Assembly: GCA_965200875.1 (NCBI GenBank)
Contig: CBDAVH010000001.1
Location: 1 to 43,099 of the forward strand
DNA from: Bdellovibrionales bacterium
GTDB taxonomy: Bacteria > Bdellovibrionota > Bdellovibrionia > Bdellovibrionales > UBA1609
Length of the DNA: 43,099 nt
Direction of reading: 5' to 3'
The position numbers were made by a program, and so were the translations under genes. How positions within the stretch are numbered: position 1 is the stretch's first letter; each line of letters opens with the position of its first letter. The notes beneath the pieces were generated by a model. It searched no databases, was not told the origin of the DNA, and saw nothing but the letters and a program-made list of their open reading frames with translations. Below are positions 1,555 through 42,739 of this stretch, one piece after another.

Positions 1555-1910
1555 TTAAGCTCCCTTAAAATACCATTTTCAATGGAAAAATGAATGGTAT
1601 TTCTACCTTCCACCTTACCCACACTGGATAATCCACCCTCTTTTACCGGAAGAAGAGAAATGGATTTTTCATCAAATAACCACTTTTTTTCAGGTCCTTT
1701 TACACATAGTTTCATAATTGAGAAATTTGTTTTATCTCCCTTTTGATAATCGGAATGAGGAACCACCACCAAGAGGTAATTCTTATGTTGAATTATATTA
1801 CCAGCTTTATCAAAAAAACCTTCAGGCAACTGCCACGGATCAATCAAAGACTCATTTTTATCAAATTTCTTAAAAAGCTTACATGGAATCTCAATCATTG
1901 ATATTTCCAA
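1551..1910 (-). CDS. Hypothetical protein, possible tail accessory
   Basis: 119-aa ORF overlapping both neighbours, directly after the tail-type gene. Confidence 0.7.
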   Translation of the reverse strand: MEISMIEIPCKLFKKFDKNESLIDPWQLPEGFFDKAGNIIQHKNYLLVVVPHSDYQKGDKTNFSIMKLCVKGPEKKWLFDEKSISLLPVKEGGLSSVGKVEGRNTIHFSIENGILRELK

Positions 1911-2691
1911 TCCGGCATGTTGCCGTACCCTGGCTGTTTGTGGCTGTAAAAACCACAGACTGAGCCTGTGGTGTGGCCATGGTTACCCTGAAGTCCGTAA
2001 AACTCCAGGTGTAAGGATTAGCTCCCTGTGTATAATGACGCTCATTGATGGTCCCTTGCTGGCCACCGGAAAACACATAAGTTATGAGTGGCCGGGGAAG
2101 GCCGGTGAAGGTCATCCCAAAAGTGTAAAGTGTTGTGGCATCCACAAAACCCGTCCGCCTGCAATTTGTCAGAGTGGGGTTTTTGGTGACAGTCACAGTC
2201 GCATCGCTATGGCTGGCACCACCGCTATTTCTGGCCACCAGGCGGTAAGTGGTGGGTTTTAAAGGCTGAGAGATATTGGGGAGTGACCCAGTGAGCGGGA
2301 GGCCCTTTCCTGCGGTAAAAGAGGCTCCTACGGCAACCCCTTCCGGTTCTCTATAAATCTGTGCAGAGAGTGAGAGCCCGGCTTGGGCAGACACAGAGAA
2401 AGAGAAACTGATAGTACCAGTAAGCCTTGTGTCCAGGTCTATCGTGGCCGGGGAAACGGAAAATGAAGAGATCGTGGGAGGATTTGTGTTGGCCCAGACC
2501 AGAGTATCCCCCATGTAAATCTTCTGGATTGGCCGGGTTCCCAGGAAGATATGAGGATAATTTGAGCCATCCCCTTTCCGGACTTCACCAAGAGCTTCTT
2601 TCATGGCCACACATGTAATTGCCGACCAGAGGACAAGAAGAGTGAGACCTATAAAAAACCTTACTTTTAGCCCCGTGGGCAAATTCTTCAT
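1891..2691 (-). CDS. Tail-fibre-associated protein with signal peptide and Ig-like repeats
   Basis: GGAGG RBS before ATG 2691 (MKNLPTG). Hydrophobic leader; IFLGTRPIQKIYMGDTLVW motif typical of phage minor tail proteins; two Ig-like modules ending YRLVARNSGG and VVFTATNSQG. Confidence 0.7.
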   Translation of the reverse strand: MKNLPTGLKVRFFIGLTLLVLWSAITCVAMKEALGEVRKGDGSNYPHIFLGTRPIQKIYMGDTLVWANTNPPTISSFSVSPATIDLDTRLTGTISFSFSVSAQAGLSLSAQIYREPEGVAVGASFTAGKGLPLTGSLPNISQPLKPTTYRLVARNSGGASHSDATVTVTKNPTLTNCRRTGFVDATTLYTFGMTFTGLPRPLITYVFSGGQQGTINERHYTQGANPYTWSFTDFRVTMATPQAQSVVFTATNSQGTATCRIGNIND

Positions 2692-2814
2692 AAAATACCT
2701 CCAAAAAACAGTCTGCATGAAGATATATATACCACATAAAGGAAAACAAACAAGCAAATAAAAGGTCTTTTTATGATACTATAGAGGATAAAAAAACCAA
2801 CAGTCTTTATTACC

Positions 2815-3147
2815 TCAATTTTTAGGCTTTGCCCTACGCTTCTTTTTTGTTTTATTCGCCTTCTTCGCCTTCTTTTCTTCATAATCAAAGACCTCCTTTA
2901 TTTTTTTAAAAAAGTCTTTTTTTAAATTGTTTCTTTTGATGTCATTAACAGAACTGTCCATATTTTTCTTTGCTTCCTCCGAAGACCAGTCCATAATGGA
3001 ATCCCAGCAATCAATTAAAACATCACGGATTGCCAGAAAAAAGCTTAAAAGATACTGAAAGACCACCACAGCAAGGTAGGTTACAGCACAAACAACCCCA
3101 AGGACAGCCCTCAGTAAGTCAGGTATTTTTCTTTTTTTTTCTTTCAT
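2815..3147 (-). CDS. Hypothetical membrane protein with Lys-rich tail
   Basis: 110-aa ORF, TM residues 12-40, GAGGAG RBS. Confidence 0.7.
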   Translation of the reverse strand: MKEKKRKIPDLLRAVLGVVCAVTYLAVVVFQYLLSFFLAIRDVLIDCWDSIMDWSSEEAKKNMDSSVNDIKRNNLKKDFFKKIKEVFDYEEKKAKKANKTKKKRRAKPKN

Positions 3148-3538
3148 TTAACTCCTCCTCTATTTTTAATAGTTTAGCCTCATTTTCACTTAAAACAAGA
3201 CTTCTTCTATAGATTAAATTTTCCATATTATTAATTTGCCAGGAAAAAAACTCGTAATGTTCTTTTTCTATCATATATCCACTAGAATTCTTTATAATCT
3301 CTTCTCTTTTTTTATTTAACGAAACAACTGTTTGTTTCGTTCTTTCCATTTCCTCTTTTAACAGGGTCATATCTCTTTTATAGAAATTTTTATCTGCTTC
3401 CAGGACATGCAAAGATATAATTACTGGTGGTTTTTCAAATAACTTTCTTATAAGTCTAAAAATCTCTGAGAATAAAAAGATAAGAGAAAAGATAAGAGAG
3501 CTTAAGGCACGGGAAATATCAGATGATTTTTTTTTCAT
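3119..3538 (-). CDS. Hypothetical coiled-coil protein
   Basis: 139-aa ORF coupled to its neighbours. Confidence 0.65.
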   Translation of the reverse strand: MKKKSSDISRALSSLIFSLIFLFSEIFRLIRKLFEKPPVIISLHVLEADKNFYKRDMTLLKEEMERTKQTVVSLNKKREEIIKNSSGYMIEKEHYEFFSWQINNMENLIYRRSLVLSENEAKLLKIEEELNERKKKKNT

Positions 3539-3666
3539 GCAGCACCATTAAAAATAAAAAAGTAAAAGTATCCTACAGCAAATCCACCTGAAAAGGAAAT
3601 AATTTGAGAAAACAGAAATACTAAAAAGTAAATCAAAGCAGGCCATGTGTTATATTTTTTTTTCAT
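3535..3666 (-). CDS. Small membrane protein (43 aa, not in ORF track)
   Basis: Hand-translated MKKKYNTWPALIYFLVFLFSQIISFSGGFAVGYFYFFIFNGAA; ATGA overlap with the 3538 gene. Confidence 0.65.
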   Translation of the reverse strand: MKKKYNTWPALIYFLVFLFSQIISFSGGFAVGYFYFFIFNGAA

Positions 3667-3696
3667 TTAAAAACTTTTCCTGACATTTCTATATAG

Positions 3697-3891
3697 TTAA
3701 TCGCCAAAATTCACAAAGCATTTTTTGCATATTGGCCTGCTTCCTACAGGAGGCTTAAAATCATAAACCCTTGAATATCCGTGTTTCCCATTACAAACAA
3801 AGCATATTAAATAAGTCTTTCTCATGAAAAACCTCCAGTAAAGGGATTCACCAAAAAAAACTCTAATAAAATCTTCCAAAAATTCTCTCAT
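3697..3891 (-). CDS. Small Zn-ribbon protein
   Basis: CFVC...CKKC pairs; alternative start MRKTY follows a GGAGG RBS. Confidence 0.65.
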   Translation of the reverse strand: MREFLEDFIRVFFGESLYWRFFMRKTYLICFVCNGKHGYSRVYDFKPPVGSRPICKKCFVNFGD

Positions 3892-4034
3892 GTTTTGGTC
3901 TCAATTACCTTAAATGGTATATCAGCTCCTCCTACACGAAGTATCCTTGGATTTTTTCCAAAGTATAGTGTAGCATTGAGTTTTGTTTTGATTATTTCCT
4001 CTAAAAGTTTTAAAATTTGCTTTTCATCTTTCAT
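3888..4034 (-). CDS. Small hypothetical protein (48 aa, not in ORF track)
   Basis: Hand-translated MKDEKQILKLLEEIIKTKLNATLYFGKNPRILRVGGADIPFKVIETKT; ATGA coupling to the next gene. Confidence 0.55.
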   Translation of the reverse strand: MKDEKQILKLLEEIIKTKLNATLYFGKNPRILRVGGADIPFKVIETKT

Positions 4035-4553
4035 ACAAATTATTCTTCCTCACAAATTCTTTATTGTCAAGAAACCATTTTTTTTTGTAAGCTATGGCCT
4101 CGTCAAGGGTTTTACAATTTTTCCCTACTTTACCAGTTTTTCTTATTTTAAGAGGTGGTATAAATCTGTAATAAGTATATCTGTAAGTGGTACAGTTTTT
4201 TCTTGTTGTACTCATCCAATGAAAAATATATTTTTCTCCTGTATTGGATCGTAGGAAGACCTGTTTTTTTGATTGAGGGAGGTTGTAGCTTCTCTTAAAT
4301 TTTCAATTCTGTCATCCCATTGTTTTCTGTTAATATGGTCAATTTGTTGGGGAAAATATCCCTTATGATAGAGAAAAACCAATCTGCTTCTTAAATAAAT
4401 TTTCCCTTTTATAACGATCTGATATCTGCCGTCTTTTCGTTGGCTTCCTGCCAGGCGGTTTTTCCGTATTCCTCTACTAAAAAAAATCCAAAACAACTCC
4501 CCGTTTTTATAGGTAAAAAGCTCTTTAACTTCTTTTTGAGTTATCATGTTCAA
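4024..4553 (-). pseudogene. HNH homing endonuclease with AP2-like C-terminal domain, split by a -1 frameshift
   Basis: 4212..4553 has the HNH motif IDHINRKQWDDRIENLREATTSLNQKN. The -1 frame continues SNTGEKYIFHW into 4024..4215 (KTLDEAIAYKK). Confidence 0.75.
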
Positions 4554-4560
4554 ATTCCTA

Positions 4561-4758
4561 TTAAAGATTTGCAGGATATTCCCTTAATATAAAGTCCCCT
4601 ATTGTTTCAGCATATTTCTTTTGGCCTTCAACAAAAGACCTTTCTTCACCATCCAAAACATCTTCTGGAATAGTGTCATGGCTTCTGGTATCCCCAAGAA
4701 GATCTTTAAATTCCTTTATATCTTCTCTGATTTTTTCCAATACTTTTTTTTTGTCCAT
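4561..4758 (-). CDS. Hypothetical protein
   Basis: 65 aa, strong GGAGGTGA RBS. Confidence 0.75.
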   Translation of the reverse strand: MDKKKVLEKIREDIKEFKDLLGDTRSHDTIPEDVLDGEERSFVEGQKKYAETIGDFILREYPANL

Positions 4759-4866
4759 AATTCACCTCCCTTCTTATAAAGAAAAGAGGGTATTTTTTGG
4801 AAAAACAAGAGATTACGCAGTGCATTTTTGTTTTTTTTAAGATTTTTTCATGGTAGGGTGAATAAT

Positions 4867-5061
4867 ATGAACAGATTTGACTTTCAAAAGATCAAAAGGC
4901 ATAACAGTATAGGTTCCAGGCTCCTGGATATATGCGATGAGATTATTGAATTTGACGAAGGCCCAGTTATTGATTTTATGGAGCGGTGGATTAAAGAACT
5001 GGATGATTCTGATTATGAAACAAAGTACAGAGAAGCCGCAAAGGAATTAAACGATGCATAA
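4867..5061 (+). CDS. Hypothetical protein
   Basis: ATG 4867, 7 nt after TGgTAGGGT; first gene of a plus-strand island. Confidence 0.7.
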   Translation: MNRFDFQKIKRHNSIGSRLLDICDEIIEFDEGPVIDFMERWIKELDDSDYETKYREAAKELNDA

Positions 5062-5257
5062 AGTTAAATATCTGACTTTTATGGAAGCTCTTAATTCAAA
5101 GCTAAAAGACGGCGAGGGACTTTTTCCTGTTAAAAATACCGGGTATTACATCAAAAGAAAATTAACTCTCAAAGAACTTAATATCAAAGGTTTTAAAAGG
5201 GAATATCCAGGTTTTCATTTTCCAGGTGATCAGGTTGGGCCAAATGAAGAAGAATAA
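5054..5257 (+). CDS. Hypothetical protein
   Basis: 67 aa, overlaps the upstream stop. Confidence 0.65.
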   Translation: MHKVKYLTFMEALNSKLKDGEGLFPVKNTGYYIKRKLTLKELNIKGFKREYPGFHFPGDQVGPNEEE

Positions 5258-5622
5258 TGTATAGTATTTTAGATACTGGACCTCATCTAACTGAGGAAAA
5301 AACTGAAGTTAGACAAGCAAATAGTGAAGAAATTGCTGGCTGGATTGTAAAAGTATATGTTCTGAGATTTATAGGCTTTTATCCATTCACTTATAGCAAA
5401 ACATTAATAAAAGAATTCTTTAAAGCAAAAAATCCTGTTGATTACTTTGATCCCCGTCCTCCAAAAATGAAAAAGTTACTTGAAAGAGTGAGACCTTGCC
5501 ATCATTGTGTCTGCATAACACCACATCCACCACACAGAGAAAAGAGAAGATTCAATGATCTTTTATACCTTCAAAAAGACAGGTTGGAATATGACATAAG
5601 AAACATACAAGGATGGGATTAG
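5257..5622 (+). CDS. Hypothetical protein with Cys/His cluster
   Basis: 121 aa, TAATG coupling, CHHCVC motif. Confidence 0.65.
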   Translation: MYSILDTGPHLTEEKTEVRQANSEEIAGWIVKVYVLRFIGFYPFTYSKTLIKEFFKAKNPVDYFDPRPPKMKKLLERVRPCHHCVCITPHPPHREKRRFNDLLYLQKDRLEYDIRNIQGWD

Positions 5623-5634
5623 AAGAGGCTGACC

Positions 5635-8600
5635 CTATTGATGGGTGAAATACGGGCAGTTGGGTAACCTGGTGGAAAGAGCCGTTCTTTGAGCCTCAGT
5701 CCCACTCCAGGCATTCCCGTCCGCTCCACAATCAATCTGAAAATAATTACCAGTCTTGGTGGCATCCGTCCTGTTCCCTTGGGGGACGAGTGCTTTTATA
5801 CGGGCATCCACAGATTCCCGATTAAAATCCTCAATCCACCTAACATCATCCCAAATGTACTTACTTCCCTGGTTTAAAGTCACATCCGGATAAAGCTTTA
5901 CTGCACCCACCAGGGCATTCACCAAATACCGCCTCCCAGGCTTGATAAAGCTCCCGTCCAGGCTTCCCACCTGGCAGAAGTTTGCATTCACTGTGGCTCC
6001 ACAGGTGTAACTGGCCCCGTTTATCCAAATCTGCGTGGGCTTCTGGCCGGAGGGGAAAACCCACATGGTCTTGTTGGCCTCATTCCCGGCGGCACGGGCA
6101 TTTGAGAAGGACACAAGCCCAGCCCACTTTGTGAGGTCTTTTTTGCCGCTCTCAAGGCTTCCAAGTTCTGTATGGTCTGTCAGTACAGACCCGTCTTCCC
6201 AGCCCGTGTAAAGGGTGTTTGAGGCTTCTGCGGCGGTAATGACAGCCCCGTCAAGGATTGTGTCATTATTCAGCATCTCAATCCTCTGCCCTTCCGTGGG
6301 GGAGGGGGGAGGACTATGGACTGCGGTTACAGCATTTGCCAGGCCCTGGAGGGCTGATTTGTCCAGTGTTCTGAGGGCTTTTGAAGCCCCGCTCTGGCCG
6401 GCCCATGAGCCGTCTTCAAATTGAATATTTACAGAATTGACAGTGGATGCAGAAGTAACCCGCTCTGAGGTTTTGACCTTAGGTGTTTTATAAACAGCTT
6501 GCCCAGACTCGGTCTCTAAGTATGAAAAACTGTAATTGACAGAGCCGATCTGTAGCAGAGCGGGTATGTGTGAGGGTTGGCCACCCTCCAAATCCACAAA
6601 AGCAGTATAACGCTGATAGGTGTCAGCATCCGTGCTGAGGTTATTGTAAGTCAGCCTCAACACCCCAGGGAAGGGGGTGGGGATGGTGAAAGTGGAACCA
6701 CTGGCCACAAAAGCAAGGTTCTTGTTTTGCTTACTCCCGGGGGTTTCCTCCTCTGCGGCTATCTTAAAATCTTTTGCAGGATCAATATCTGCATCATCAA
6801 AGCCATATCTTACTTTAGAATCCAAATCTATGGATTTCACAATAGGTTGTCCTGGTAATGGGCTTCCTATAAATGGAAAACCATAAGTTGCTGTTCTTCC
6901 TGTACTCCAGAGAGAAAAGAAACCTGATTCATAAGTATTTCTGTGACCTCCAACATTGACAACAATAGACCTGTTAAAAGTACTAAATGAGTTCCTTAAT
7001 TGTAACCCCACTGGAAATCCTGTTAATGTAATATCCAGTGATGCTGAAGCTCTTGCTTTAGTATCCTTATTAAAAGCATATAATTTATTACTGGAACATA
7101 CTGATCCAACATAAACATGAGTGCTATTTACATAGAGAACATAATCACTATTGATTTCCCTTCCTTCACATGGGGAAAGTGTGTTTCTTAATGGGATTAA
7201 ACTTATATCTTCATTGGATAATCTTGTTACCTGGAATGGAGTTTTTGTGTAAGACCACACAACAATTTTTAAATCACCAAGAGTGTTGAAATTCCCTGTT
7301 GAATTACCAACAACAAGATATATTCTGTCCTCTGTTACATACATTCCTGATATTCTATAAAATGCATTATTGGGATGAGAGGTAGAGGTAATTTGATAAG
7401 AAAAATTTGGTATGGGATTTTTTATACTCGGTATTGAAGAACTTGCAGCATTTGCATTATCAGAATAACCAAATGTTATGTTATAAGAACCTCTTGGATT
7501 GTTTTGTCGTGTTATCGGCATTATTAAAAGATCATTATCAGGATTTGATGCCCATGATACTATATACCTGTAAGAAGATATATTAAGATTTGGAGTTATT
7601 TCCTCTGCCCCAGTTTCTAAATTGATCCTTGAACCTTGATTTGAAGAAATGGAAGAAAAATCTCTATACAGATATTTACCTATTAAGGCAACACCTATAT
7701 AATAGTATGTTCTCTCACCTGTAATTGATAGAGATCTTTGAAAAGAGGGGTTTTCAATTACCTTATTCAAAGTAAATTGATTAAGTATTTCCTGATCATC
7801 ATTTGTTTTGGTTGCTATATCATCAATCTTTTCCAAAGCTTTTTGAACATTATCATCCCTGGTGTTCAGGTTTTTATCAAAGGTGGAGGTGGAAACAGTG
7901 ACACCGGAAGCTGCCAGGGAAGTAACAGGAGCATCAATCTCAGTCACAGACTTTAAAGCATGAAAATTAAAAGCATTCGTGGTCTCATCACCCTGCGTGG
8001 GAACCGCAGTGAAAAATCCCACCCCTGTAACATACTGACGACTTGTCCATACACCCTCCGAGTCCCCAGTCTCACTGGAAGGCACCAGGTAAGTCACATA
8101 ATCATGCTGAGCATTATCAGCCTGACGGGCAAACTGCACAGAATTCACAATAACAGGATTAACCCCAGCCTGGTAAAAACGAGCATACAAATTCGCCGGG
8201 GCATCCGCATAAGACACCGCAGACTTCTTAATCAGCAAAGTCGCATCCGCATCCGCAGACCCGTTATCCCTAAACTCCAGCCTGGTAATCGGTAAATCAG
8301 ACCCTGCCAGGGGCTGGCCACCATCCCAGGTACTCAAAGAACCATACACATCCCCGGTGGAGCTAAATCCCCAATTATTCGCATTTTTGGGATCAGCAAC
8401 ACCGGCCATTCTGAAAAGATGCCTCTCACCAGAATCAGCACCCCCAACCTCCACCCACCGGCCGGGAGCAGGTGTGTTTATCCGCAAAACCTGGCCATGA
8501 GCATAAGAACTTAAATTGGTGGGTGTGGTGTCTAAGGAAATAAACCTTGTATCCTCAGAGGATACATCCGTGGCAATCGTGAGAGTTTTACCCGCCTCAT

Positions 8601-9315
8601 CAGGGGTGACAGTGATATTCGCACCAGCCTTGATAACCTCCCGCACAGAGGGGTAAATATTGGTCTGATTGGGGGTAAATTCCTCAAGGTCCAGAAAGGC
8701 CAAAAATCCAGCCTTCCCCAGAGTGGCATTCCTCTTTGAGGAGCTGGTGGCCGGGTCAAAAGTCCCGTCCGTAAATTCAAACTTTACATCCTTCCACCCC
8801 CCCGCAGAGGGCAAAGCAGGACTAATGGTTGAATAAATAACATCCGTGGTTCCCAGCTTGGCATTCCTGGCCAACCAATTTACAGAATACTCTACAGCCC
8901 CAATCCAGATGTTCTTTACCCGCTTACTCTGAGCCGACCGATAAGCTACCCGGGTATCACTCAAAAGCATAATATCATTAGAGGGGGCCGGCAAAGCACT
9001 CCCCGTGCCAGTCTGCCCCGTAACACTCCTGTTCCATGCCACTGTACCCCACCCCGAAGGGGCTGAAGCCGTGGTAAAAGCTATCAAATTGCTGGTTTCC
9101 TGCTCCACCAGGAAGGTCATATTTTGATGCGTGGAAGCCGCCTGCGGGCTGAAAACATTCCCTATGGCCAACTCATTCGGATAAGCCTCCTGCACCTCCT
9201 CCGCCAAAATAGCCTGAGAAAAGACCTCATCCTGCGGAACCTCAGCACGGGAGCAAAGAGGAACAATTATGGGCAGAATAAAAGGAAGCCACCAGGGCCA
9301 AAAAAGATTTTTCAT
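5635..9315 (-). CDS. Large tail fibre / receptor-binding protein with signal peptide
   Basis: ORF 5635..9384, likely start MKNLFW at 9315. S/T/G-rich beta modules, FDKNL..DDNVQKALEKID motif, C-terminal WSGTEAQRTALSTRLPNCPYF motif typical of phage fibre ends. Confidence 0.75.
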   Translation of the reverse strand: MKNLFWPWWLPFILPIIVPLCSRAEVPQDEVFSQAILAEEVQEAYPNELAIGNVFSPQAASTHQNMTFLVEQETSNLIAFTTASAPSGWGTVAWNRSVTGQTGTGSALPAPSNDIMLLSDTRVAYRSAQSKRVKNIWIGAVEYSVNWLARNAKLGTTDVIYSTISPALPSAGGWKDVKFEFTDGTFDPATSSSKRNATLGKAGFLAFLDLEEFTPNQTNIYPSVREVIKAGANITVTPDEAGKTLTIATDVSSEDTRFISLDTTPTNLSSYAHGQVLRINTPAPGRWVEVGGADSGERHLFRMAGVADPKNANNWGFSSTGDVYGSLSTWDGGQPLAGSDLPITRLEFRDNGSADADATLLIKKSAVSYADAPANLYARFYQAGVNPVIVNSVQFARQADNAQHDYVTYLVPSSETGDSEGVWTSRQYVTGVGFFTAVPTQGDETTNAFNFHALKSVTEIDAPVTSLAASGVTVSTSTFDKNLNTRDDNVQKALEKIDDIATKTNDDQEILNQFTLNKVIENPSFQRSLSITGERTYYYIGVALIGKYLYRDFSSISSNQGSRINLETGAEEITPNLNISSYRYIVSWASNPDNDLLIMPITRQNNPRGSYNITFGYSDNANAASSSIPSIKNPIPNFSYQITSTSHPNNAFYRISGMYVTEDRIYLVVGNSTGNFNTLGDLKIVVWSYTKTPFQVTRLSNEDISLIPLRNTLSPCEGREINSDYVLYVNSTHVYVGSVCSSNKLYAFNKDTKARASASLDITLTGFPVGLQLRNSFSTFNRSIVVNVGGHRNTYESGFFSLWSTGRTATYGFPFIGSPLPGQPIVKSIDLDSKVRYGFDDADIDPAKDFKIAAEEETPGSKQNKNLAFVASGSTFTIPTPFPGVLRLTYNNLSTDADTYQRYTAFVDLEGGQPSHIPALLQIGSVNYSFSYLETESGQAVYKTPKVKTSERVTSASTVNSVNIQFEDGSWAGQSGASKALRTLDKSALQGLANAVTAVHSPPPSPTEGQRIEMLNNDTILDGAVITAAEASNTLYTGWEDGSVLTDHTELGSLESGKKDLTKWAGLVSFSNARAAGNEANKTMWVFPSGQKPTQIWINGASYTCGATVNANFCQVGSLDGSFIKPGRRYLVNALVGAVKLYPDVTLNQGSKYIWDDVRWIEDFNRESVDARIKALVPQGNRTDATKTGNYFQIDCGADGNAWSGTEAQRTALSTRLPNCPYFTHQ

Positions 9316-11771: not shown

Positions 11772-13178
11772 CTATTCATAATCTTTTAACACCAAAGGTA
11801 CCGATCTATTTTGAGAAAGGCAAAGGGTTTGTACAAATAATGCATAAGACACAGAATTTATGAGAACACTGCCGGCAGACTTCCACAGATCACTTTCCCG
11901 GCCATTCAAAAGGAAAAGAAGGTTCGTGTAATCCGAACTCTTTACCCCCACAAAAGGGGCATAATACCCCGTCACACCAGGTGTCTGAAAAACCACCCTG
12001 GCTCCGGCCAAAAGCAAAGAAGATACAGTCTTCTCAGTCCTCCCGGAAGGATCAGCTGCCGCCGTCTGTACCAAAGGCTGTAAAGTCGTCAAATCCCTCG
12101 TCTGTGTGGCTATACGGGAGGTCAAGCCATAAAAAAAAGTATGCTGAGGTATGGTGGCGCCACCACCTCCCCCACTCCCCGCAGGACCTTGCGGCCCCAC
12201 AGGCCCAGTATCCCCTTTATCACCCTTCGGTCCCGCAGGACCAGCAGGCCCCTCAGAACCCCGGGGACCAGGCTCACCATCCGCCCCCTGTGGCCCCACA
12301 GGCCCACTCGCACCATCCACACGGGTTACATATATCCCCGTCCTTACATCACTACTAAATGCAGGAATACTGAAAGTCATACTGTCACTCGGACTGTTTC
12401 CCTGAAACCTCACCCTTAAATCCAAATAATCATTCGCCTTGCAATCAATCAATCCAAGAGACACAGGAATTGCATAATCATTTGCCGATTGATAAGTCTG
12501 AATCATGGAAGGCCGCTCACTAATCACATCATCAATCAATGTGTCAGGAGTACCAGGCCGCAAATGCCTTATCTCAAAACCAATCTCCTTCGTCTGAGAA
12601 CCTGACCTCCCCTCAATATGAATCTCTACCTCAGCCCTGATGAAATAAATCCCATCCCTCAAAATCTTTACACCCTTGCCACTCTGAACCTCCGCCACAG
12701 TATCATCGCTCCCATGATCAGGAAAAGTCCCCACTGTAAAAGCATTGATCGTGTGACTTTGACGGGTGTTACCAGTTAAAGTCACATTGGAAGTCGTGGC
12801 ATTGATCCTGAAAACCGCCTCACTGATGGATACAGGAACACTGGGACCTCCCACACGGCCAACAAAAGTCAGTTGAATCTCATTTCCATTCCCATCCTTG
12901 CAAAACAGCTCCGTATTTTTAAAATACAGGCTGTTTAAACCCACTGGAGTAGTTTGTTGGGCTATAAACTGCAAACTCTTTAAGCCCAACAGAGACCTGT
13001 TTCTGAGTGAATAATCAGCATTTGGGAAAACAGAGGACAAGGGGACTGTAGCTCCCCGCAAAAGACTGTGATTATGAGCATCAATCTTCTGTAAATTGGA
13101 ATTAAATATCCGTATCAGGTCTGCCAAAGTGGCAGTACCAGCCAAAATTTCCTCTAAATTAAGATTAGGTGTCGCCAT
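11772..13178 (-). CDS. Collagen-like tail fibre protein
   Basis: N-terminal TPNLNL...KIDAHNH attachment-type motif, jelly-roll-like middle ([10 protein letters not shown]), about 15 Gly-X-Y triplets. Confidence 0.8.
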
Positions 13179-15249: not shown

Positions 15250-15900
15250 CTAAAAATAACCCTCCACCTCTTGAACCACCTGAGTACTGCTGTCCCTACT
15301 ACTAGCCCATTCCATAACACTACGCATATACCCCTGAGCCATACTCCCAATCTCAGGAACAGGATTTTGCTGAATAACACCCAACAAATAAGCCACCTGG
15401 TAGATTAGATAATTCTCAAAACCCTTCTGTAAATCAGGATTATTCTCAAAATCAGGATCACTCGTGTAAGTCAGCCTAAACTGATTCCCTGATACATTAG
15501 ACTTGGGAAAAATCTTAATATGATCAGAAAATATCAAATACTTCCAGTTAGAATCAGGCCCCCAATACCAATAATCAATCAAAATCCCAGAAGCCAAAGA
15601 AGCTCCATGATAACTCGTCTGCTGAAGATGCCTGTAATAATCACCACGCTTTAATTCTACATTACGCATCCTGTAAAAATCAGAAGGTAAAGGAACCTCA
15701 TTACTCCCAGGGGACACAGGATCACTCAAAACCTGCTTTACATAAGTCCCCTCGTTCAACTCAACAATCTTAAAATAAAGATTGTCATAGACCTCTTTTA
15801 TACGATCCTTTATCTCTTCATCAGTATGAAAATCACCCTTAACATCAGCAACACTCCTGATCCTTCGGGTTAGGTCCTGAATGTTTATCGCAGCCAACAT
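15250..15900 (-). CDS. Head-tail adaptor (tail tubular A-like)
   Basis: Follows the capsid gene; N-terminal helices, LPSDFYRMRNV and IKIFP motifs of podovirus adaptors. Confidence 0.8.
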   Translation of the reverse strand: MLAAINIQDLTRRIRSVADVKGDFHTDEEIKDRIKEVYDNLYFKIVELNEGTYVKQVLSDPVSPGSNEVPLPSDFYRMRNVELKRGDYYRHLQQTSYHGASLASGILIDYWYWGPDSNWKYLIFSDHIKIFPKSNVSGNQFRLTYTSDPDFENNPDLQKGFENYLIYQVAYLLGVIQQNPVPEIGSMAQGYMRSVMEWASSRDSSTQVVQEVEGYF

Positions 15901-15912
15901 AAGACCTCCCAG

Positions 15913-15944
15913 AAAAAGTCCCCCCTCCCCGAAGAGAGGGGAAA
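15913..15944 (-). terminator. Rho-independent terminator after major capsid gene
   Basis: CCCCTCTC-TTCG-GGGAGGGG stem with a UUCG tetraloop, then ACTTTTT. Confidence 0.8.
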
Positions 15945-15956
15945 CCCATTTAATTT

Positions 15957-17231
15957 TTAAGCAAAAGTTGGAATATCAGCCCCAGTAAGCTCAATCTGAG
16001 CCGATAAACCAGGAGCCTGACAACACAAATTCCCATAAGACTCAAGCCTTACCTCACGACCAGGACTGTCATGAGCCTGCTTGTAAATCCCACCAGCAGC
16101 ATCCTGCACAAAAGACACAAAATCCGACTTTAAATGTCCAATATGAAAAGCCTCCTCCGTTAATAAAAGCATCTTGTTCGGAGGCATAAAAGGACTGGAA
16201 ACAAGCTCAATCACACCATTACTTGTCTGAAAACCCAAACGGCCCTGACCAATATAGGTGATCTCTGCCATCCTCTTTCCACCATCAGTAACAAAATTGA
16301 TGTTTTGCTCTTGCTCCGCTGCAATCTTGTTCTCAACAAGAGGAGATACATATACAGCATTCGGACCCCTACCAGAAAGGTTGTCTATGGAAGCCGCAAC
16401 CTCACGGACAGTCTTTGCAAAATTCGTGCCAATAGCCTTTGTAACTTTCTGACCAGCAAGCCTTAAGGGATCAATATTACGATTTAACCCATGCAAACTC
16501 CCCGGGGTAGAGCCACCAGGCAGGTAATCAAAGAAAGAAGTAAGTGCTGTTTCCCCACGATCCCCATTTCTGAATACATAGTCATTTACCACTATAGAAG
16601 CATGCAGAGCAGCAGTTAGCGTGATTTTACCGCCCTTACGATCAACACTTTCAATCGTGTAAGGACCACCAGCACGGGAAGCAGCAGCATTGGATGTTGA
16701 AAACTCCAACTCCATATTCACTTCAAAGTTAGCCATCACAGGGTTATTCAGGGTTATAGTCCTCCTCCCCGAAGCAATACCCCCAGCTTTAATCCGACCA
16801 ATAGCATTCGGCTGACCAGAATCATTCAATAAGGCGGAACATCTTTTATTCCTCAATGCCAAAATCGCATTGTCCGTCTCATCAGCGAATGCACCCACAA
16901 ACGCATGCAATGAGGTCATAGAAGCATAAATCACCTTGTTCTCAATCACACTCACCCCGAAGTCTTTGTCATACGGCACATTAAAAGCAACCCTTGCACC
17001 AGTGCTTTTTCTTCCGATTGAAGAGGCAATACCGAACTTTTTAGATTGAGCCGGTGTCATACCAGCACGGATCGGTACATACATCTCATTACCCCCAAGA
17101 TTGGGTAAGGATTGCATTGTCGTAATCCTTCGCAAAACTTTATCAGCCGTCATCAAACTGTCCTTCAGACCGAAGTCCAAATAAACAGTCTTCATATATT
17201 TTGAGAAATTTGTAAAACTTAGCCCGAACAT
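15957..17231 (-). CDS. Major capsid protein
   Basis: 424 aa after the scaffold gene, strong RBS, downstream terminator, HK97-like motif order (G..MYVPI; C-terminal YGNLCCQAPG). Confidence 0.85.
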   Translation of the reverse strand: MFGLSFTNFSKYMKTVYLDFGLKDSLMTADKVLRRITTMQSLPNLGGNEMYVPIRAGMTPAQSKKFGIASSIGRKSTGARVAFNVPYDKDFGVSVIENKVIYASMTSLHAFVGAFADETDNAILALRNKRCSALLNDSGQPNAIGRIKAGGIASGRRTITLNNPVMANFEVNMELEFSTSNAAASRAGGPYTIESVDRKGGKITLTAALHASIVVNDYVFRNGDRGETALTSFFDYLPGGSTPGSLHGLNRNIDPLRLAGQKVTKAIGTNFAKTVREVAASIDNLSGRGPNAVYVSPLVENKIAAEQEQNINFVTDGGKRMAEITYIGQGRLGFQTSNGVIELVSSPFMPPNKMLLLTEEAFHIGHLKSDFVSFVQDAAGGIYKQAHDSPGREVRLESYGNLCCQAPGLSAQIELTGADIPTFA

Positions 17232-17260
17232 AGAAACCTCCTGGTTATTTAAAATTTGGA

Positions 17261-17305
17261 TTTTTCTATGAAACTTTTAGGAATTTTTTATAAAACTTTT
17301 AGAAA
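17261..17305. repeat. Imperfect 22-23 bp tandem repeat in the capsid leader
   Basis: TTTTTCTATGAAACTTTTAGGAA / TTTTTTATAAAACTTTTAGAAA. Confidence 0.7.
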
Positions 17306-18460
17306 TTAACCTGACATATTCACAAGATGCTGGAATCCCTTCATTATAGTTGCATCTCTTGCCTTACCAATCGGCAAAGGCCCATTCACTAACTTTTGTC
17401 CCTGCCCTAAAACATTACCGACTTCAGAGCCATGGGAGCCTATAGGAAGCTTAATGGTCTGGTTAGGATCTTCAAGGAAATCAGGAGTTCGCATGCTTGG
17501 AAATTGCATAAGCTGATTGTCCGGGTTTTGAGGAGTTTGCACCGGGGGAACTTGGCTCTGAGGTTGATTTTGCTGAAAAACCTGCTGAGTCTGCTGAGGA
17601 GTAGTCTTCTGAAGACCAGGAATTTTCAAAACCTCAAGGTCCCCTATGGGATTAGATTGCTGAGATAATACATCTTGCTGTTGAGGAGTTTTAACCTCTG
17701 CCCCCCCAGTAATACGGCCATGCAGAGATTTAAGCTGCATCTCAGCATTCTGGACAGCATTTTCCAGAGGTAAAGGATTGCCGGTGTTCCGGTAATGAAC
17801 TTCCATGTGCTTCATTATGTTTTCAACCGTTACATCATCCAACATCCTTGAAGTGAGCTGATATTTATTCTTATTTTCCTCCTTACTCAAGAATTCTCTG
17901 ATTTGATTCCCTAAGAGCTGCCTTTGTTGAACATTAGTCACAGAAAGTAAGCCCTCTTTTAAAGCTTTTAGCTCTTTTTCAAGCTTTGCTTCTCTTTCAG
18001 TGGCATAATCATCACCAGTATCAAATTGATTTTCCTCAGAGGCTTGCTCTTCAGCATTTTCCTGTTTTTTGCCAGTGGCAGCTGAAATAACAGCTTGTAA
18101 TTGCTCCGGGGTTTGGATTTTGTACTTTCCAAGCATGTCCAGAAATGCTTGTTTTTGCTGAACCAGGTTATTTGCAGCAAGAACTTTTTGCCTTGCCAAC
18201 TCAATGGCTTCCGGAGTGACTTGTTGGCTGATTTGTTGGTTTTGCTGCTGAGTTTGAGGTGGAATCTGTCCGGCTTGATTTTGAGGAACTTGCTGAAACT
18301 GAGGGTTAGTAAATGGCTGGACGGGGTGAAAACCTTGCTGTGCTTGAGGCTGGTTTTGAACTCCCTGGGGGGCCTGATTGGCCTGTAAAGCCCCGTTTGG
18401 GGTTGTGTTGGGATTTATACCCATGGCTGATAATATTTGCTGTTTCTGATTTTCATCCAT
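17306..18460 (-). CDS. Gln-rich scaffold protein
   Basis: Low-complexity Q/P ends with a helical acidic core, immediately upstream of the capsid gene. Confidence 0.7.
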   Translation of the reverse strand: MDENQKQQILSAMGINPNTTPNGALQANQAPQGVQNQPQAQQGFHPVQPFTNPQFQQVPQNQAGQIPPQTQQQNQQISQQVTPEAIELARQKVLAANNLVQQKQAFLDMLGKYKIQTPEQLQAVISAATGKKQENAEEQASEENQFDTGDDYATEREAKLEKELKALKEGLLSVTNVQQRQLLGNQIREFLSKEENKNKYQLTSRMLDDVTVENIMKHMEVHYRNTGNPLPLENAVQNAEMQLKSLHGRITGGAEVKTPQQQDVLSQQSNPIGDLEVLKIPGLQKTTPQQTQQVFQQNQPQSQVPPVQTPQNPDNQLMQFPSMRTPDFLEDPNQTIKLPIGSHGSEVGNVLGQGQKLVNGPLPIGKARDATIMKGFQHLVNMSG

Positions 18461-18518
18461 AAAAACCTCCTGATTAAGAGTATCTGAGCTTTTATTATTC
18501 AGTGTGTCAAGTTTTTTT

Positions 18519-19136
18519 TTACTTATCCTTCAGATAATCAGGAAGGCCAGTCTTCTCAGGCTTGGGTTCCTTACCAGCCTTCTTTTGCTCCTCCCACAAA
18601 TCTTTGAAGTCCCTGGCTCTGTCCGGGTTCCTTTCCTTAAAGAATTTGTAAAGACTTTTCCAGTCTTCCCGCTCCTGCCAGTCGGCTATAACCCGCTCCT
18701 CAATCTCTCTCAGTCGCTGATTAAAGCCCACGGGCTTAGGTATGCCAAAAGCCTCAAAGATGCTGGGAATGGGCTGTTTATGCGAAATAATCTGCCTCTC
18801 ACGGGTCTTTTCCAGGTAAAGCTGCTTTTCATCATCCTTCAGCCCCTTGATCCATAGCAGGGTCTCAAAATCACTTTCCATTCCCTTCTTAAGCTTCCTA
18901 AAGCTAGTCTGAAACAAATCAATAGCCTTCATTTGCTTCTCTATACCCGTTAGCTGGTCAAGTGGAGCAAGAGAGGATAAATCCACAGAAATAGACTCTT
19001 GCATCTTCTCTTTCAGGGCATTCAAAGCATCAGCACTTACCTTCTGGTAAAAATTCATGCTATCTGCTGATAATGGTTTAGTATTCCTGAGGTTATATCC
19101 TGTCATAGGTGTATTTTTGCTAAGTTTTGACCCCAT
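18519..19136 (-). CDS. Hypothetical helical protein (terminase small subunit candidate by position only)
   Basis: 205 aa, leaderless-type start, adjacent to the 10-bp repeat array; function not recognised. Confidence 0.6.
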   Translation of the reverse strand: MGSKLSKNTPMTGYNLRNTKPLSADSMNFYQKVSADALNALKEKMQESISVDLSSLAPLDQLTGIEKQMKAIDLFQTSFRKLKKGMESDFETLLWIKGLKDDEKQLYLEKTRERQIISHKQPIPSIFEAFGIPKPVGFNQRLREIEERVIADWQEREDWKSLYKFFKERNPDRARDFKDLWEEQKKAGKEPKPEKTGLPDYLKDK

Positions 19137-19180
19137 GTGTTAATAATAGAGCCATTTTTGAAGGGTTTTGCAACATAAAT

Positions 19181-19230
19181 TTTCAGTAGATTTCAGTATA
19201 TTTCAGAATATTTAAGAATATTTAAGAATA
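19181..19230. repeat. Five tandem 10-bp repeats
   Basis: TTTCAGTAGA TTTCAGTATA TTTCAGAATA TTTAAGAATA TTTAAGAATA. Confidence 0.95.
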
Positions 19231-19259
19231 ACGCACTGCTTTTTTTTTTAATTTAATAC

Positions 19260-19287
19260 TGGACAAAAGTATTGAGTATGATATTGT
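19260..19287 (+). promoter_or_regulatory. Sigma70-type promoter of the recombination operon
   Basis: TGGACA-16-TATTGT with extended TG and an upstream T-rich UP-like tract; predicted TSS about 19294. Confidence 0.6.
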
Positions 19288-19323
19288 GGGTTTATCTTAC
19301 AACAACAACAAGGAGGAAAAAGC

Positions 19324-19512
19324 ATGGAAATTATAAGAGAAGAGACGTCCAAGACGGGGGTTTTTTGCAGGCGTTGTGAAACCCGTATGGTGATACGGGA
19401 CAATTTTGAGGAGCGTTTATGCAGGTTTTGTGAGAAGATGGAGGATTCGGAGCATGATTTATGGATGGAGCTTAGTGAGACACCTGTGGATCAGCCCGGT
19501 CCGAGTGAGTAA
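19324..19512 (+). CDS. Small acidic Zn-ribbon protein
   Basis: AAGGAGG RBS; CRRC...CRFC. Confidence 0.8.
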   Translation: MEIIREETSKTGVFCRRCETRMVIRDNFEERLCRFCEKMEDSEHDLWMELSETPVDQPGPSE

Positions 19513-19640
19513 GATTAACCAAAAAAAAGGAGGGAATTATGAACATTCAAGGACACAATAAGGAGTTAAAAAAGAAAACTTTTGAGCATGTCAGAGCATG
19601 ACAGAAGCATTGAAATTTGCGGTTATTCAGATATTGATTA

Positions 19641-19706
19641 GCTGAAACAGGGGCTTTTTAGCCCTTGTCTTCCGGTGTTGGCCGGCCGGGACTGATGAGG
19701 TGGCCA
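19641..19706 (+). ncRNA. Type II hammerhead ribozyme HH1
   Basis: GAAA 19644-47; stem III ACAGGGGC/GCCCTTGT; GTC cleavage after C19669; stem I TTCCGG/CCGGGA; CTGATGA 19692-98; stem II GGT/GCT; pseudoknot of loop TGGCC with GGCCA. Confidence 0.88.
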
Positions 19707-19731
19707 GAAACTTTAACTGTAGGAGGTAAAA

Positions 19732-20301
19732 ATGTTTTCAAAAGCAAAAGAAATTGGGGAAAAGGCAGAGGGTAAGGTTAAGGCAGAGGGTAAGGTTGTG
19801 GAAGGGTCAGGGGGTAAGAGTTTGGGTAAGAAAAAGAGGTCTTTGTATGCGGCTCTTGCGAGGGCCAGCATCAAGATTCAGAAGAAATGTGTGACGGATT
19901 CAACAGCTTCAATACAAGGCAGGAGTGGGGGTTTCACTTATAAATACCTCTCTCTTGTTAAGCTATTGGGCTTAGCCAGGCAGCATTTAAATGATGAGGG
20001 TTTAAGCTTCCTTCAGTACCTGGATTTCGGGGGTATAGTCACAAAAATACTGGATCCGGAGACGGGGGAGTGTATTGAATCAAAGCATATGCTTCCCACG
20101 TATATGGAAGTAAAGACTCAGTCTCGTAGTCTTTCTCAGGACATGGGAGGGGCTATTACCTATTTTAGGAGATATGCCCTGGCGACTATGCTGGGGGTAC
20201 AGCCGGAGGATGACCGGGATGGGGCTTCTTATGATCAGAGGCCACATAATCCTGCAAGTGGCAGCTCTCATAAAGCAAAAGGAGGAATGCCTAACTTTTA
20301 A
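19732..20301 (+). CDS. erf: ERF-family single-strand annealing protein
   Basis: YKYLSL and QDMGGAITYFRRYALATMLGVQPEDDRDG ERF signature; AGGAGGT RBS. Confidence 0.95.
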   Translation: MFSKAKEIGEKAEGKVKAEGKVVEGSGGKSLGKKKRSLYAALARASIKIQKKCVTDSTASIQGRSGGFTYKYLSLVKLLGLARQHLNDEGLSFLQYLDFGGIVTKILDPETGECIESKHMLPTYMEVKTQSRSLSQDMGGAITYFRRYALATMLGVQPEDDRDGASYDQRPHNPASGSSHKAKGGMPNF

Positions 20302-20322
20302 TTAAATCAGAGGTTGAACAGC

Positions 20323-20433
20323 ACCGAAACGCCCCTGCTTCTAATAGCCTTCCTTGTTAGTTGTAAGAGATTATCAAAAGGTCAGCAGGGGTGTCTGCCT
20401 GGGGTGGTAACCAGGTACTGATGAGGTAGCCAT
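20323..20433 (+). ncRNA. Type II hammerhead ribozyme HH2 with extended stem III loop
   Basis: ACC-GAAA 20323-29; stem III ACGCCCCTGCT/AGCAGGGGTGT; GTC cleavage after C20395; stem I TGCCTGG/CCAGGTA; CTGATGA 20418-24; stem II GGT/ACC; loop GTGGT can pair with GCCAT. Confidence 0.92.
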
Positions 20434-20456
20434 AAACAAACAAGAGGGGGGTTAAG

Positions 20457-21023
20457 ATGATTTTAAAAAGAAGAACAACCGGGCGTGCAGAGTCCGATGC
20501 CGGGGAGGAGTTTGATTTCTTTTATATTATTGAAACCTACCAGGAAGAAAAAGATCCTTTATGGTGGGACAGATTTAAAAGTATTATAAAAGACTCTTTT
20601 ATGCTTAATGATGCATATACAAAAGAATTTGAAATTATGGGATTTTCCGGATATTTATTACCGGATGACGGAAAAAATTCCTTTAAGGAATATCTTACAT
20701 TAAAAGATGGTTTAATTCTTATCTATCTGCTTAAAGAAGCAGTAAGAATAAAAATAAAAATGTTTCAAGGTTTATTGGATAACAATACTTTGGCATGGAA
20801 ACCAGAGCCAGAAAATGTAATTAAAGAATATGAGGAAGCCCGTAACAAACATAAGGGTTCTATGGAATTTTTAAACAATCTTGAAAACATTATCCACAGT
20901 GTGAAGTTTTATTATGAAAAAAATGTCAATGCTTTTAAGTCAAATCCTTTTGTGCCAATTGTGCCAAAAGATAAAATACATTTTCTAAAAAACATAGAAG
21001 TATTAAACCATAAAAAAATTTAA
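20457..21023 (+). CDS. Hypothetical protein
   Basis: 188 aa, GAGGGGGG RBS just after HH2. Confidence 0.8.
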   Translation: MILKRRTTGRAESDAGEEFDFFYIIETYQEEKDPLWWDRFKSIIKDSFMLNDAYTKEFEIMGFSGYLLPDDGKNSFKEYLTLKDGLILIYLLKEAVRIKIKMFQGLLDNNTLAWKPEPENVIKEYEEARNKHKGSMEFLNNLENIIHSVKFYYEKNVNAFKSNPFVPIVPKDKIHFLKNIEVLNHKKI

Positions 21024-21037
21024 AAAGGAGGAAAAAA

Positions 21038-22024
21038 ATGACTGAAAAAACGGACAAAACAATACATAACTTAAGCTTGTTAAAGCCGGTGGATACAAAA
21101 ATAACCAATATTGAGGAGAAAGAATGTGTATCAGCCAGCAAGCTGAAAACACTTTTTAATTATGGAGTATGGGGATTTTTAAAATCCTATGTTCTTGGTG
21201 AAAGAGTGAAAGTAAAACCAGCCATGCAAAAGGGATCACAAAGCCATGAGGTATTTTACAAAATACTCTCAATCCTCAAAAGCTATAACAAAAATGGTAG
21301 TCTCATCTCACAAGATATAATTACCAAGGTACTTGGCTTGGAATTTGAAAAAAACTTTATTCAAAAACCAAAAGGTCTGAGAAAAACAGTTGATAAAGAG
21401 GCTTTTGAAAAAGAAGCCAAAGGGAAAATTATTTTAACAGAGGAGCTTTTGGAAACATACAATAGCTCAGTATTATTCTTATCTTCCATATCTTTAAAAG
21501 ATTTGGAGCTTTTGATTTACTCAGATATTGAGAAAAAACTTATAACCTCCGGGGTGGGTGTGAAGTTTTTAGGTATCTATGATTTGTTAAACTTCAATGA
21601 AAATCATGGTTTTGATATAAAGACTTCGTCTGTCAGCGGAGACCCCAAAAACTCTGCCCTTAAATACAAGGGGCAGGATTATTTCATACAAGAGATGCTT
21701 TACAGGATGATTTATAAGCAGGTTACTGGGAAAGATCTTGAGGATTTTAGATTTATAATGATTGAAACTTCTTTCCCTTTTAAGGTTTATTTTATGGAGC
21801 TTGATTTTCCCCTGGCGGCTCCGGAGTATTCTCAGTTTATGGAAAAACTGATAAATAATTATTCTTTTATACTGAACAAGTTAAAGGAATTTACCAATGA
21901 TCCCTTTAATGTTTTCTGTAAAAGAGACAGGAATGAGGGAGTGGATTTAATAAAAAAGACAAGATTATTGGAGGAAAGTATGGGTAAAACCTTTAAGGTT
22001 AAGCCCTTTATGAAGTGGATTTAA
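21038..22024 (+). CDS. PD-(D/E)xK exonuclease (RecE/ExoVIII-like)
   Basis: SASKLK, AMQKGSQSHE, GIYDLL, FDIKTS, YFIQEMLY, FRFIMIE motifs; in the same operon as ERF. Confidence 0.88.
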   Translation: MTEKTDKTIHNLSLLKPVDTKITNIEEKECVSASKLKTLFNYGVWGFLKSYVLGERVKVKPAMQKGSQSHEVFYKILSILKSYNKNGSLISQDIITKVLGLEFEKNFIQKPKGLRKTVDKEAFEKEAKGKIILTEELLETYNSSVLFLSSISLKDLELLIYSDIEKKLITSGVGVKFLGIYDLLNFNENHGFDIKTSSVSGDPKNSALKYKGQDYFIQEMLYRMIYKQVTGKDLEDFRFIMIETSFPFKVYFMELDFPLAAPEYSQFMEKLINNYSFILNKLKEFTNDPFNVFCKRDRNEGVDLIKKTRLLEESMGKTFKVKPFMKWI

Positions 22025-23421
22025 TATATTCCTTCCCTTCTTTGCATCTCTCTTGTTTCCTCTATAACCTTTTGCAAATCTTTTTCAGCCTCAGTCCTCG
22101 TGTCCCGGGGACTGGGGTACTGATTTATTACCCACCGCACAGCATACAGGCAGGCATCCAGTAAGTCTGAATGGATGCTGTTGTCTTCGTCAATCCCTGT
22201 GTAAAGATCGTTAAAAAATATTCGGTCCATTTCCTGGAGTAACAGGCTGTCTTTTTTAAACAGGAGTCTTCCCCGGTAAGCTTCAGTCCTCATTTCCAGA
22301 AGGTGAGCCATTTTGTCAGTCTTTTTGGCAGCAATAATTCCATGAATGCCGTGCCTGTTCCTTATGATATTTGCCAGCCTCTTTCCATGGCCTCCATAAT
22401 CAAAGGCTATGGGATGAGGCTCACTTCCTTTGTTATACTCCTCTCTCACACTTTTTATCTTGGCAGCCAGGTCTTCAGTATCAGCATCCACACTGCTTAA
22501 CTCCACCTCATAATCCACATAAGCGGTCCTGTGATGATTGGAGTAACAAATAACCACAATGGCATCCTTTGCCATACCTCCCCCAGTATCCACACCAATC
22601 ACCTTCTCATATTTGGATACATCTTCCGGTAGTTTTTCATAAGTTTTTATCTTTGAGGTTTGAAATACCAGGGAGCTGGTATCATAAGCAAACTCCCCGA
22701 ACATATCCCTCCTGAAGCCAGGATCATTTTCATAAGCCTCCTGGATGCTTTTATAGCCCCGTCTCTTGGCCATTTTTAACAAGTAGTCTTTTATTTCCCT
22801 GGATGTATATGCGGGGTTCTCATGGATTGTTAATTTTATTCTTTCAATCTCTTTATTATTTAAATTTTCCTCAATGTAGGGAATTTTTACAGGAGGTGGG
22901 TTATAGATAAGATTTATGGAGGCATATTTAACACCGATTGAAGTTGGCTCTATTACATTATTTAGATAATGCCTTGTTACGATTTCTCTTACAGTATGGA
23001 CTTCGTCAAAAAACACTGCAAGAACAGGGAAACCATAATCAAGGTTTGCACTGGGTATATCTCTTAATCCCCGGAAATGAATTTCACAGTATCTTCCTGC
23101 ACGGATCATATTCTTACCACTGTAAAAATCAAATCCAAGATTAAATTTTTGATTAATTCCAAGAAAAAGTCGCCAGTACAGGCTCTTTGTCTTCTCTATG
23201 GTGGCAGAGGCAAATACAATTCTTTTCATAAATGTTTGTTCATATGACTTACTTATTAGATACAAAGCCTTACAAACATTGGCAAAAGTTTTGCCAGCCC
23301 GCCTGCTTCCATAAGCAGTATTCCATAACGCATTTTCTGTTATATAATTATACTGTTTTGGATGAGAACCGTAAAAACCCTTAATATATGAAAGTACAGG
23401 TGTTAAATTTTGTTTTTCCAT
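22021..23421 (-). CDS. terL: Terminase large subunit
   Basis: Walker A SRRAGKT, Walker B VFFDE, RNase H nuclease IGVDTGG...D and C-terminal DLLDACLYA. Confidence 0.95.
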   Translation of the reverse strand: MEKQNLTPVLSYIKGFYGSHPKQYNYITENALWNTAYGSRRAGKTFANVCKALYLISKSYEQTFMKRIVFASATIEKTKSLYWRLFLGINQKFNLGFDFYSGKNMIRAGRYCEIHFRGLRDIPSANLDYGFPVLAVFFDEVHTVREIVTRHYLNNVIEPTSIGVKYASINLIYNPPPVKIPYIEENLNNKEIERIKLTIHENPAYTSREIKDYLLKMAKRRGYKSIQEAYENDPGFRRDMFGEFAYDTSSLVFQTSKIKTYEKLPEDVSKYEKVIGVDTGGGMAKDAIVVICYSNHHRTAYVDYEVELSSVDADTEDLAAKIKSVREEYNKGSEPHPIAFDYGGHGKRLANIIRNRHGIHGIIAAKKTDKMAHLLEMRTEAYRGRLLFKKDSLLLQEMDRIFFNDLYTGIDEDNSIHSDLLDACLYAVRWVINQYPSPRDTRTEAEKDLQKVIEETREMQRREGIY

Positions 23422-42670: not shown

Positions 42671-42672
42671 TT

Positions 42673-42738: not shown

Positions 42739-42739
42739 A

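Follow-up and report, generated by a model that had tools for sequence, protein, structure and literature searches.

Predicted export of two fibre subunits encoded by a podovirus-type phage binned with a Bdellovibrionales genome, and their proposed docking on the virion at lysis

Tailed-phage particles are taken to be built entirely in the cytoplasm. Among other phages, pIII of the filamentous phages is a Sec-exported, disulfide-bonded virion adhesin, anchored in the membrane and added during extrusion, while T4 Hoc, a cytoplasmic protein, displays Ig domains on a tailed virion. One survey, in the part of its text available, names T4 Hoc and takes the lack of signal peptides as support for the phage origin of a protein (PMC6199706). 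T5 pb4-pb5 and the models in PMC12309495, as far as the accessible sections describe them, pair a long, probably trimeric carrier with a separate small Ig-type protein taken up at its tip, and the only signal peptide that these sections mention is that of Lom. In Bdellovibrio bacteriovorus, the chromosomal MAT fibres carry a conserved 130-aa beta-rich domain after the signal peptide, and 13 of the 21 end in S74 (PMC10769870, available part). In the literature searched, namely the main texts of openly accessible papers, no description of exported tail fibres was found.

The DNA analysed here (the window, 43,099 bases) is the entire second contig of a two-contig genome whose partner contig measures 1.83 Mb; it is a podovirus-type phage binned with a Bdellovibrionales genome. 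Its virion, packaging and lysis genes are the following.

15250..32114, minus strand: podovirus-type virion and packaging genes, leaderless, assigned by family matches and by size and position
15250-15900, minus strand: adaptor, SU10_adaptor above cut-off
15957-17231, minus strand: capsid, a weak match to SU10_MCP
22021-23421, minus strand: terminase, by PHROG
23819-25591, minus strand: portal, by PHROG
25757-32114, minus strand: three probable ejection proteins, labelled from size and position
42329..43099, minus strand: lysis genes, an M15-type endolysin and a 113-aa ORF

The endolysin ORF is 5'-open at the contig end, and the lipoprotein-like 113-aa ORF beside it is a putative spanin. A 1708-aa gene, whose product matched no family, is the probable nozzle by size and position. 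The virion genes all lie on the minus strand, yet they are scattered, with AT-rich small genes between them that are often on the plus strand. No terminal repeat was found on the contig, the endolysin frame gives no clean join from one contig end to the other, and one contig of short-read run X1 extends 10.6 kb beyond base 800, exceeding what the window has left. A promoter scan gave chance level (33 found, 29.1 expected).

Two further proteins of the window, a large one of 1226 residues and a small one of 266, are our subject.

5635..9315, minus strand: 1226-aa protein, proposed exported proximal fibre subunit, a mosaic of beta-rich modules
9244..9315, minus strand: Sec/SPI leader predicted at aa 1-24 of the large protein, SRA followed by EV
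6811..7875, minus strand: low-GC swappable middle module, aa 481-835, with Cys716/740
5644..5730, minus strand: C-terminal tail-tip-type motif between Cys1196 and Cys1220
1891..2691, minus strand: 266-aa protein, proposed exported distal subunit, with leader, tail-type N-terminal peptide and two tandem Ig domains
2697..2702, minus strand: Shine-Dalgarno sequence GGAGGT of the small gene
2587..2691, minus strand: Sec/SPI leader predicted at aa 1-35 of the small protein, ALG followed by EV
2480..2586, minus strand: mature N-terminal peptide of the small protein (..HIFLGTRPIQKIYMGDTLVW), matching phrog_1304, the proposed docking peptide
1915..2163, minus strand: Cys177 and Cys259, a disulfide predicted from model secondary structure and family co-occurrence

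Like the T5-type spikes and the models in the accessible sections of PMC12309495, this pair would consist of a long carrier and a small Ig-type tip protein; here both subunits have leaders and cysteine pairs, and no sequence likeness to pb4-pb5-type two-part spike proteins was found. The predicted subunits would share Sec export and disulfides with pIII, from which the membrane anchor and the addition during extrusion set them apart, and Ig domains on a tailed virion with Hoc, which differs in being cytoplasmic. With the MAT fibres, so far as the available text describes them, they have in common a signal peptide, a mosaic phage-like fibre body, variable adhesive modules and a related host order; unlike these, they are encoded on phage contigs, have no S74 match, end in a tail-tip motif and come with a separate Ig partner. 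Absence of S74 alone does not exclude membership, because eight MATs in that text also lack it; as to a MAT-like chromosomal multigene family, neither window protein matches the co-binned chromosome. Each of the parts, whether tail-tip motif, Ig domains or collagen anchor, belongs to a known kind; the export route is not previously described in the literature searched.

The leaders were assessed with a rule of our own, requiring a mean hydropathy of at least 2.0 over 11 uncharged residues within the first 55, with a basic residue before. Both N-termini pass, as against none of the internal windows of either protein (0/1147 and 0/176) and none of the ten other ORFs of the window that were tested, all with virion or packaging roles. 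The rule also passes three small membrane-type ORFs of the window and the tape measure protein of a second phage (G065, see below), and it is therefore a hydrophobic-leader test and no substitute for SignalP. Both leaders have a basic n-region and an uncharged hydrophobic h-region, and small residues stand at -1 and -3 before the predicted mature start (SRA before E, ALG before E). Among the leader-bearing rows of an alignment of the small family, counted by eye, position -1 is A, G or S in 16/16 and position -3 is A, S or C in 15/16, and the leader sequences themselves are unrelated. The leader cysteines (VPLC and AITC) misfit the lipobox pattern and are absent from many homologues. For the large family, 15 homologues match aa 55-470 and 835-1220 in varying parts; eleven pass the rule and a twelfth has a leader by eye, two of the remaining three being apparently 5'-truncated and the third a fused form (P0035) discussed below. 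The earlier note had read both leaders from the window alone, and conservation in homologues bears it out (12/15 large-family members with a leader, a small residue at -1 in 16/16 of the small family). The note had also pointed to the EV that follows both leaders; the letters are there, and the resemblance, like the shared MKNL, is a coincidence, because at +1 the homologues show E, D, Q or T, behind leaders of unrelated sequence. The range that it gave, 1891..9315, needs a correction: the two genes are not adjacent, and between them, at 2692-5634, lie small ORFs unrelated to either, one of them an HNH gene.

The leaders might be artefacts of start calling, with translation beginning downstream. 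The large gene, whose frame could also open 23 codons upstream, at 9384, has no Shine-Dalgarno sequence at either ATG, and the small protein has a Met at position 31. Against this, GGAGGT lies 5 bases upstream of the small gene's ATG, and 40 homologues keep open, hydrophobic, cleavable leaders that are unrelated in sequence and track cysteine pairs. The leader of the large protein lies downstream of either start, its homologues start in the 9315 register, and for both minus-strand ORFs the starts proposed earlier, 9315 and 2691, hold good. Short-read contigs of run X1 span both starts with no alternative letters, a support that is not independent because X1 is possibly the source sample. An artefact is thus very improbable. 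The large gene (9316-9340) and the probable nozzle gene (40893-40915) have similar pre-ATG bases (ctgtgtct, ctgtgtt), neither with a Shine-Dalgarno sequence, and both are possibly expressed from near-leaderless transcripts.

That the mature parts hold paired cysteines, as the earlier note had it, is correct: 716/740, 1105/1114 and 1196/1220 in the large protein and 177/259 in the small one. The small family made it possible to compare leaders with cysteines. A profile search of 1.84 billion representatives, together with a word search, yielded 173 candidates. The second Ig domain is covered in 113 of them, and one animal-like Ig protein was excluded. Leader-bearing and leaderless members both occur, and leaderless ones (P0021, P0053 and P0102, for example) begin with Met in the predicted cleavage register, as predicted by cleavage to a fixed mature N-terminus. 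Under the mechanical rule, 24/37 leader-positive and 8/75 leader-negative rows have the two aligned cysteines (Fisher p 6e-9, in a sample whose kin are not independent). Curation by eye, done after seeing the cysteines, removed 14 apparently 5'-truncated rows and reassigned three leaders that the rule had missed. In the resulting 98 rows the last 100 aa always contain exactly 0 or 2 cysteines, and the pair is found in 33/40 leader-bearing and 1/58 leaderless members; seven of the 14 dropped rows have the pair, and if these rows are kept as leaderless the latter figure becomes 8/72. The leaderless member with a pair is P0051, and 7/40 leader-bearing rows, among them the G065 copy, have none. 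The leader-bearing rows show three different pairings: one joins the first strand to the last, one joins the first strand to a position some 20 residues on, and one closes a 12-residue loop (P0057). On a quick IQ-TREE tree the leader label changes 13 times, at least 6 of these changes being forced by well-supported branches; the tree-corrected independent-pairs test gave 2.6 pairs for and 0 against (p 0.25), in the same direction with too few pairs for significance.

The near absence of the cysteine pair from leaderless relatives makes it likely that these parts fold outside the cytoplasm. Export and disulfide bonding, which the earlier note had proposed, are well supported by this homologue comparison, and we regard it as highly probable that both fibre proteins are exported and form disulfides. 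The co-binned chromosome encodes SecA, signal peptidase I (two S26-family genes), a DsbA-like protein and a VKOR-thioredoxin fusion (732261-733349); DsbB gave no match in the genome, and its role is filled there by VKOR.

An AlphaFold2 model of the small protein (pLDDT 88) shows a leader helix, then a short three-stranded peptide, then a tandem pair of Ig domains, the second of which has Cys177 in its first strand and Cys259 in its last. Structural matches identify the fold as Ig, I-set-like, with Z up to 10.2; the I-set match is weak in the G065 copy. The mature N-terminal peptide matches the PHROG 1304 minor tail proteins (profile positions 5-36, E 3.3e-4). Many members of the family (P0021, P0125, P0129, P0131 and others) have long propeller-blade-like repeat modules, inserted between the docking peptide and the Ig pair or placed before them.

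A leader of 35 aa is long, and in the model it forms a single helix (aa 6-33), as might be expected if the two proteins were periplasmic, or tethered by an uncleaved helix, and acted in superinfection exclusion or lysis timing; secreted non-virion proteins do occur among tail genes, lambda Lom being an example in the accessible part of PMC12309495. We think such a function improbable, because the (-3,-1) rule is kept immediately before the conserved N-terminus, some homologues have leaders of just 15-16 aa, and the variable middle modules suggest outward ligand binding.

The middle module of the large protein has a GC3 of 0.1-0.3 as against about 0.5, and four homologues have Kelch propellers in their middle part. 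The probable nozzle gene and the large fibre gene each contain one sharply bounded low-GC in-frame insert (38013-38828 and 6811-7875) with GC3 about 0.2; the two inserts are unlike each other and matched no family. In runs X1 and X2, the part of the large gene encoding the C-terminal region has a second allele at 5981-6126, with 13 substitutions and two compensating one-base gaps, which is local variation within the phage population. AlphaFold2 modelled the large protein poorly (pLDDT 54, pTM 0.29), and fold searches with the model returned nothing usable.

All large-family members with an intact end have a C-terminal motif in common. A profile built from 11 homologue C-termini found the window protein as its sole match among 1704 ORFs (E 1.7e-4). 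The G065 homologue passes PF24243 "phage tail tip domain" (Phage_tail_C) with 33.6 bits against a cut-off of 23.7, and P0030 matches it weakly; the window protein has no PF24243 match, its tip homology resting on our own C-terminal profile. The sequences suggest that the window motif works like PF24243, though it is not a member by the Pfam cut-off; it also differs from that domain in being flanked by cysteines and lying within an exported protein. The tip cysteines are present in 10/11 large-family C-termini and missing only in P0035, which is leaderless and has one cysteine. Neither exported protein matched any Pfam domain, S74 included, or any of 50,697 GenBank phages; the PDB sequence search gave no match for the large protein, its tip or the N-terminus of the anchor described below, and every ESM Atlas match scored under 0.9. 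Related loci were absent from viral-contig and genome-contig collections, and a metagenome search returned one weak locus. Many contigs that carry homologues are 40-53 kb long.

P0035 connects the large protein to a third gene of the window, a collagen fibre without leader, which, like the other two, stands kilobases away.

11772..13178, minus strand: 468-aa leaderless collagen fibre, proposed cytoplasmic virion anchor
about 11772-12146, minus strand: domain X, C-terminal in the 468-aa fibre and shared with the G065 siphovirus (E 5e-11)

The N-terminal domain of P0035 is homologous to that of the 468-aa fibre (E 3e-16), and is followed by a short collagen stretch and then directly by the first module of the large protein; both domain X and the mature N-terminal peptide of the large protein are missing from P0035. 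The large protein, for its part, lacks this N-terminal domain and keeps the conserved mature peptide. In podovirus lateral tail fibres an N-terminal domain attaches to the tail adaptor; the domain here, which had no PHROG, Pfam or PDB match in the 468-aa fibre, may bind the tail. The fused P0035, the PF24243 match in G065 and the PHROG minor-tail match of the small protein support kinship with virion fibres, and this much of the earlier view of the pair as virion fibres stands; attachment to virions is proposed from the architecture.

The second phage is a siphovirus (contig of 45,350 bases, in genome G065) with tape measure, tail tube and J-like tip genes. Among window ORFs of at least 100 aa, only four have matches in it, namely the two fibre subunits, the collagen fibre by its domain X and, weakly, the recombinase Erf; the two phages are otherwise unrelated. 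Both of its fibre subunits have leaders, and its small subunit has no cysteines. In this phage, domain X forms the end of a leaderless protein of 173 aa, encoded directly before the capsid gene, and two further domain-X proteins carry other N-termini. The siphovirus large gene is split by contig ends (L092:7300-7350 and L090:1-774), its first piece stopping early, which is either an assembly break or a real frameshift. Gene order in this phage is scrambled as well, and its J-like tip gene is inverted.

Our preferred reading, to which we give a probability of roughly 0.55, is that the exported proteins are segments of a three-part fibre and dock on the virion at lysis, each docking step being drawn from architecture. 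The leaderless collagen fibre would be the cytoplasmic anchor built into the virion, on the tail here and perhaps on the head in the siphovirus, and the large and small proteins would likely be the outer segments. The latter would pass the host Sec system, be cleaved and disulfide-bonded, and wait in the periplasm. Because the phage has portal, terminase and lysis genes, the compartments meet only at lysis, which would mix them and let the exported subunits dock on the virion-bound collagen fibre. The mature N-terminal peptide of the large protein (about aa 25-55) may bind domain X, replacing the covalent link of P0035, and that of the small Ig protein may plug into the C-terminal tip motif of the large one. 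Tip motif and mature N-terminal peptide would, judging by their arrangement here, bind each other. The assembled fibre would bind a surface on or near the host and, to speculate, a confined lysate could favour late assembly if the host grows inside prey. A predicted complex of domain X (3 copies, from a 4-row alignment) with aa 25-200 of the large protein (3 copies) scored 0.00, in a run in which the controls were also not folded, and weighs neither for nor against the docking.

Domain X has weak look-alikes among C1q/BclA-type tips (scores 0.79-0.82, leads only), so the 468-aa fibre may be complete alone. It could then be the whole virion fibre, and the exported pair would be released free at lysis as a fibre-derived decoy, a matrix-binding factor or an aggregation factor; indeed, the best-supported links (leader, disulfides, tip motif with a matching peptide) need no virion. 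Such release is rather unlikely in our view, for domain X accompanies the pair into the siphovirus behind a different and very short N-terminus, and it is missing from P0035, in which the conserved mature peptide of the large protein is absent too.

The earlier note had offered display on the host cell as the other outcome. Phage-encoded adhesins of the MAT kind would then alter binding to prey or to an animal host in the carrier state; the probable host belongs to the Bdellovibrionales by its best RecA matches, the phage contig is co-binned with that chromosome, and MAT fibres are, in the available part of PMC10769870, phage-like trimers with signal peptides. This outcome is weakened, and we hold it to be unlikely. 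Neither protein was found to have a lipobox, S74, another Pfam domain or a known outer-membrane anchor domain, no integrase or repressor was found among the window ORFs scanned, and leaderless relatives cannot be surface adhesins. In addition, the small family and domain X were found on no chromosome among 384 genomes of the order, in which only the two phage contigs carry them.

For the host itself, the three best matches of the chromosomal RecA are in Pseudobdellovibrionaceae and Bdellovibrio (scan of 1/64 parts of the collection). Phage and chromosome have no DNA in common and no linking CRISPR spacer was found, so that the link is one of binning only; it gains some weight from the second phage contig, which has the same module and comes from another genus of the same family. 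A search of 108 other genomes from that family found no match to the phage terminase. A LuxR-type regulator (13229-13624) and an SSB (32453-32800) are the sole phage proteins matching the co-binned chromosome, at about 30% identity.

The wider proposition is that virion assembly in tailed phages includes a periplasmic branch, carried by a portable module of three genes (cytoplasmic anchor, exported fibre, exported Ig tip) that in our data co-occurs in two genomes, a podovirus and a siphovirus, its host-recognition fibre folded oxidatively outside the cytoplasm and clipped on after lysis, in a family that switched between cytoplasmic and exported states several times and gained disulfides with export. 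We give it even odds. Because one protein occurs here as a cytoplasmic, an exported and a fused form, the family is a good test case, and these forms, together with a module common to two tail types, provide a built-in control. If the proposition is true, morphogenesis would include a new step, in which an exported and oxidised fibre joins the particle at lysis. Phages would gain disulfide-stabilised binding domains, their infectivity would depend on the Sec and Dsb proteins of the host, and annotation pipelines would be misfiling such virion parts as secreted cargo.
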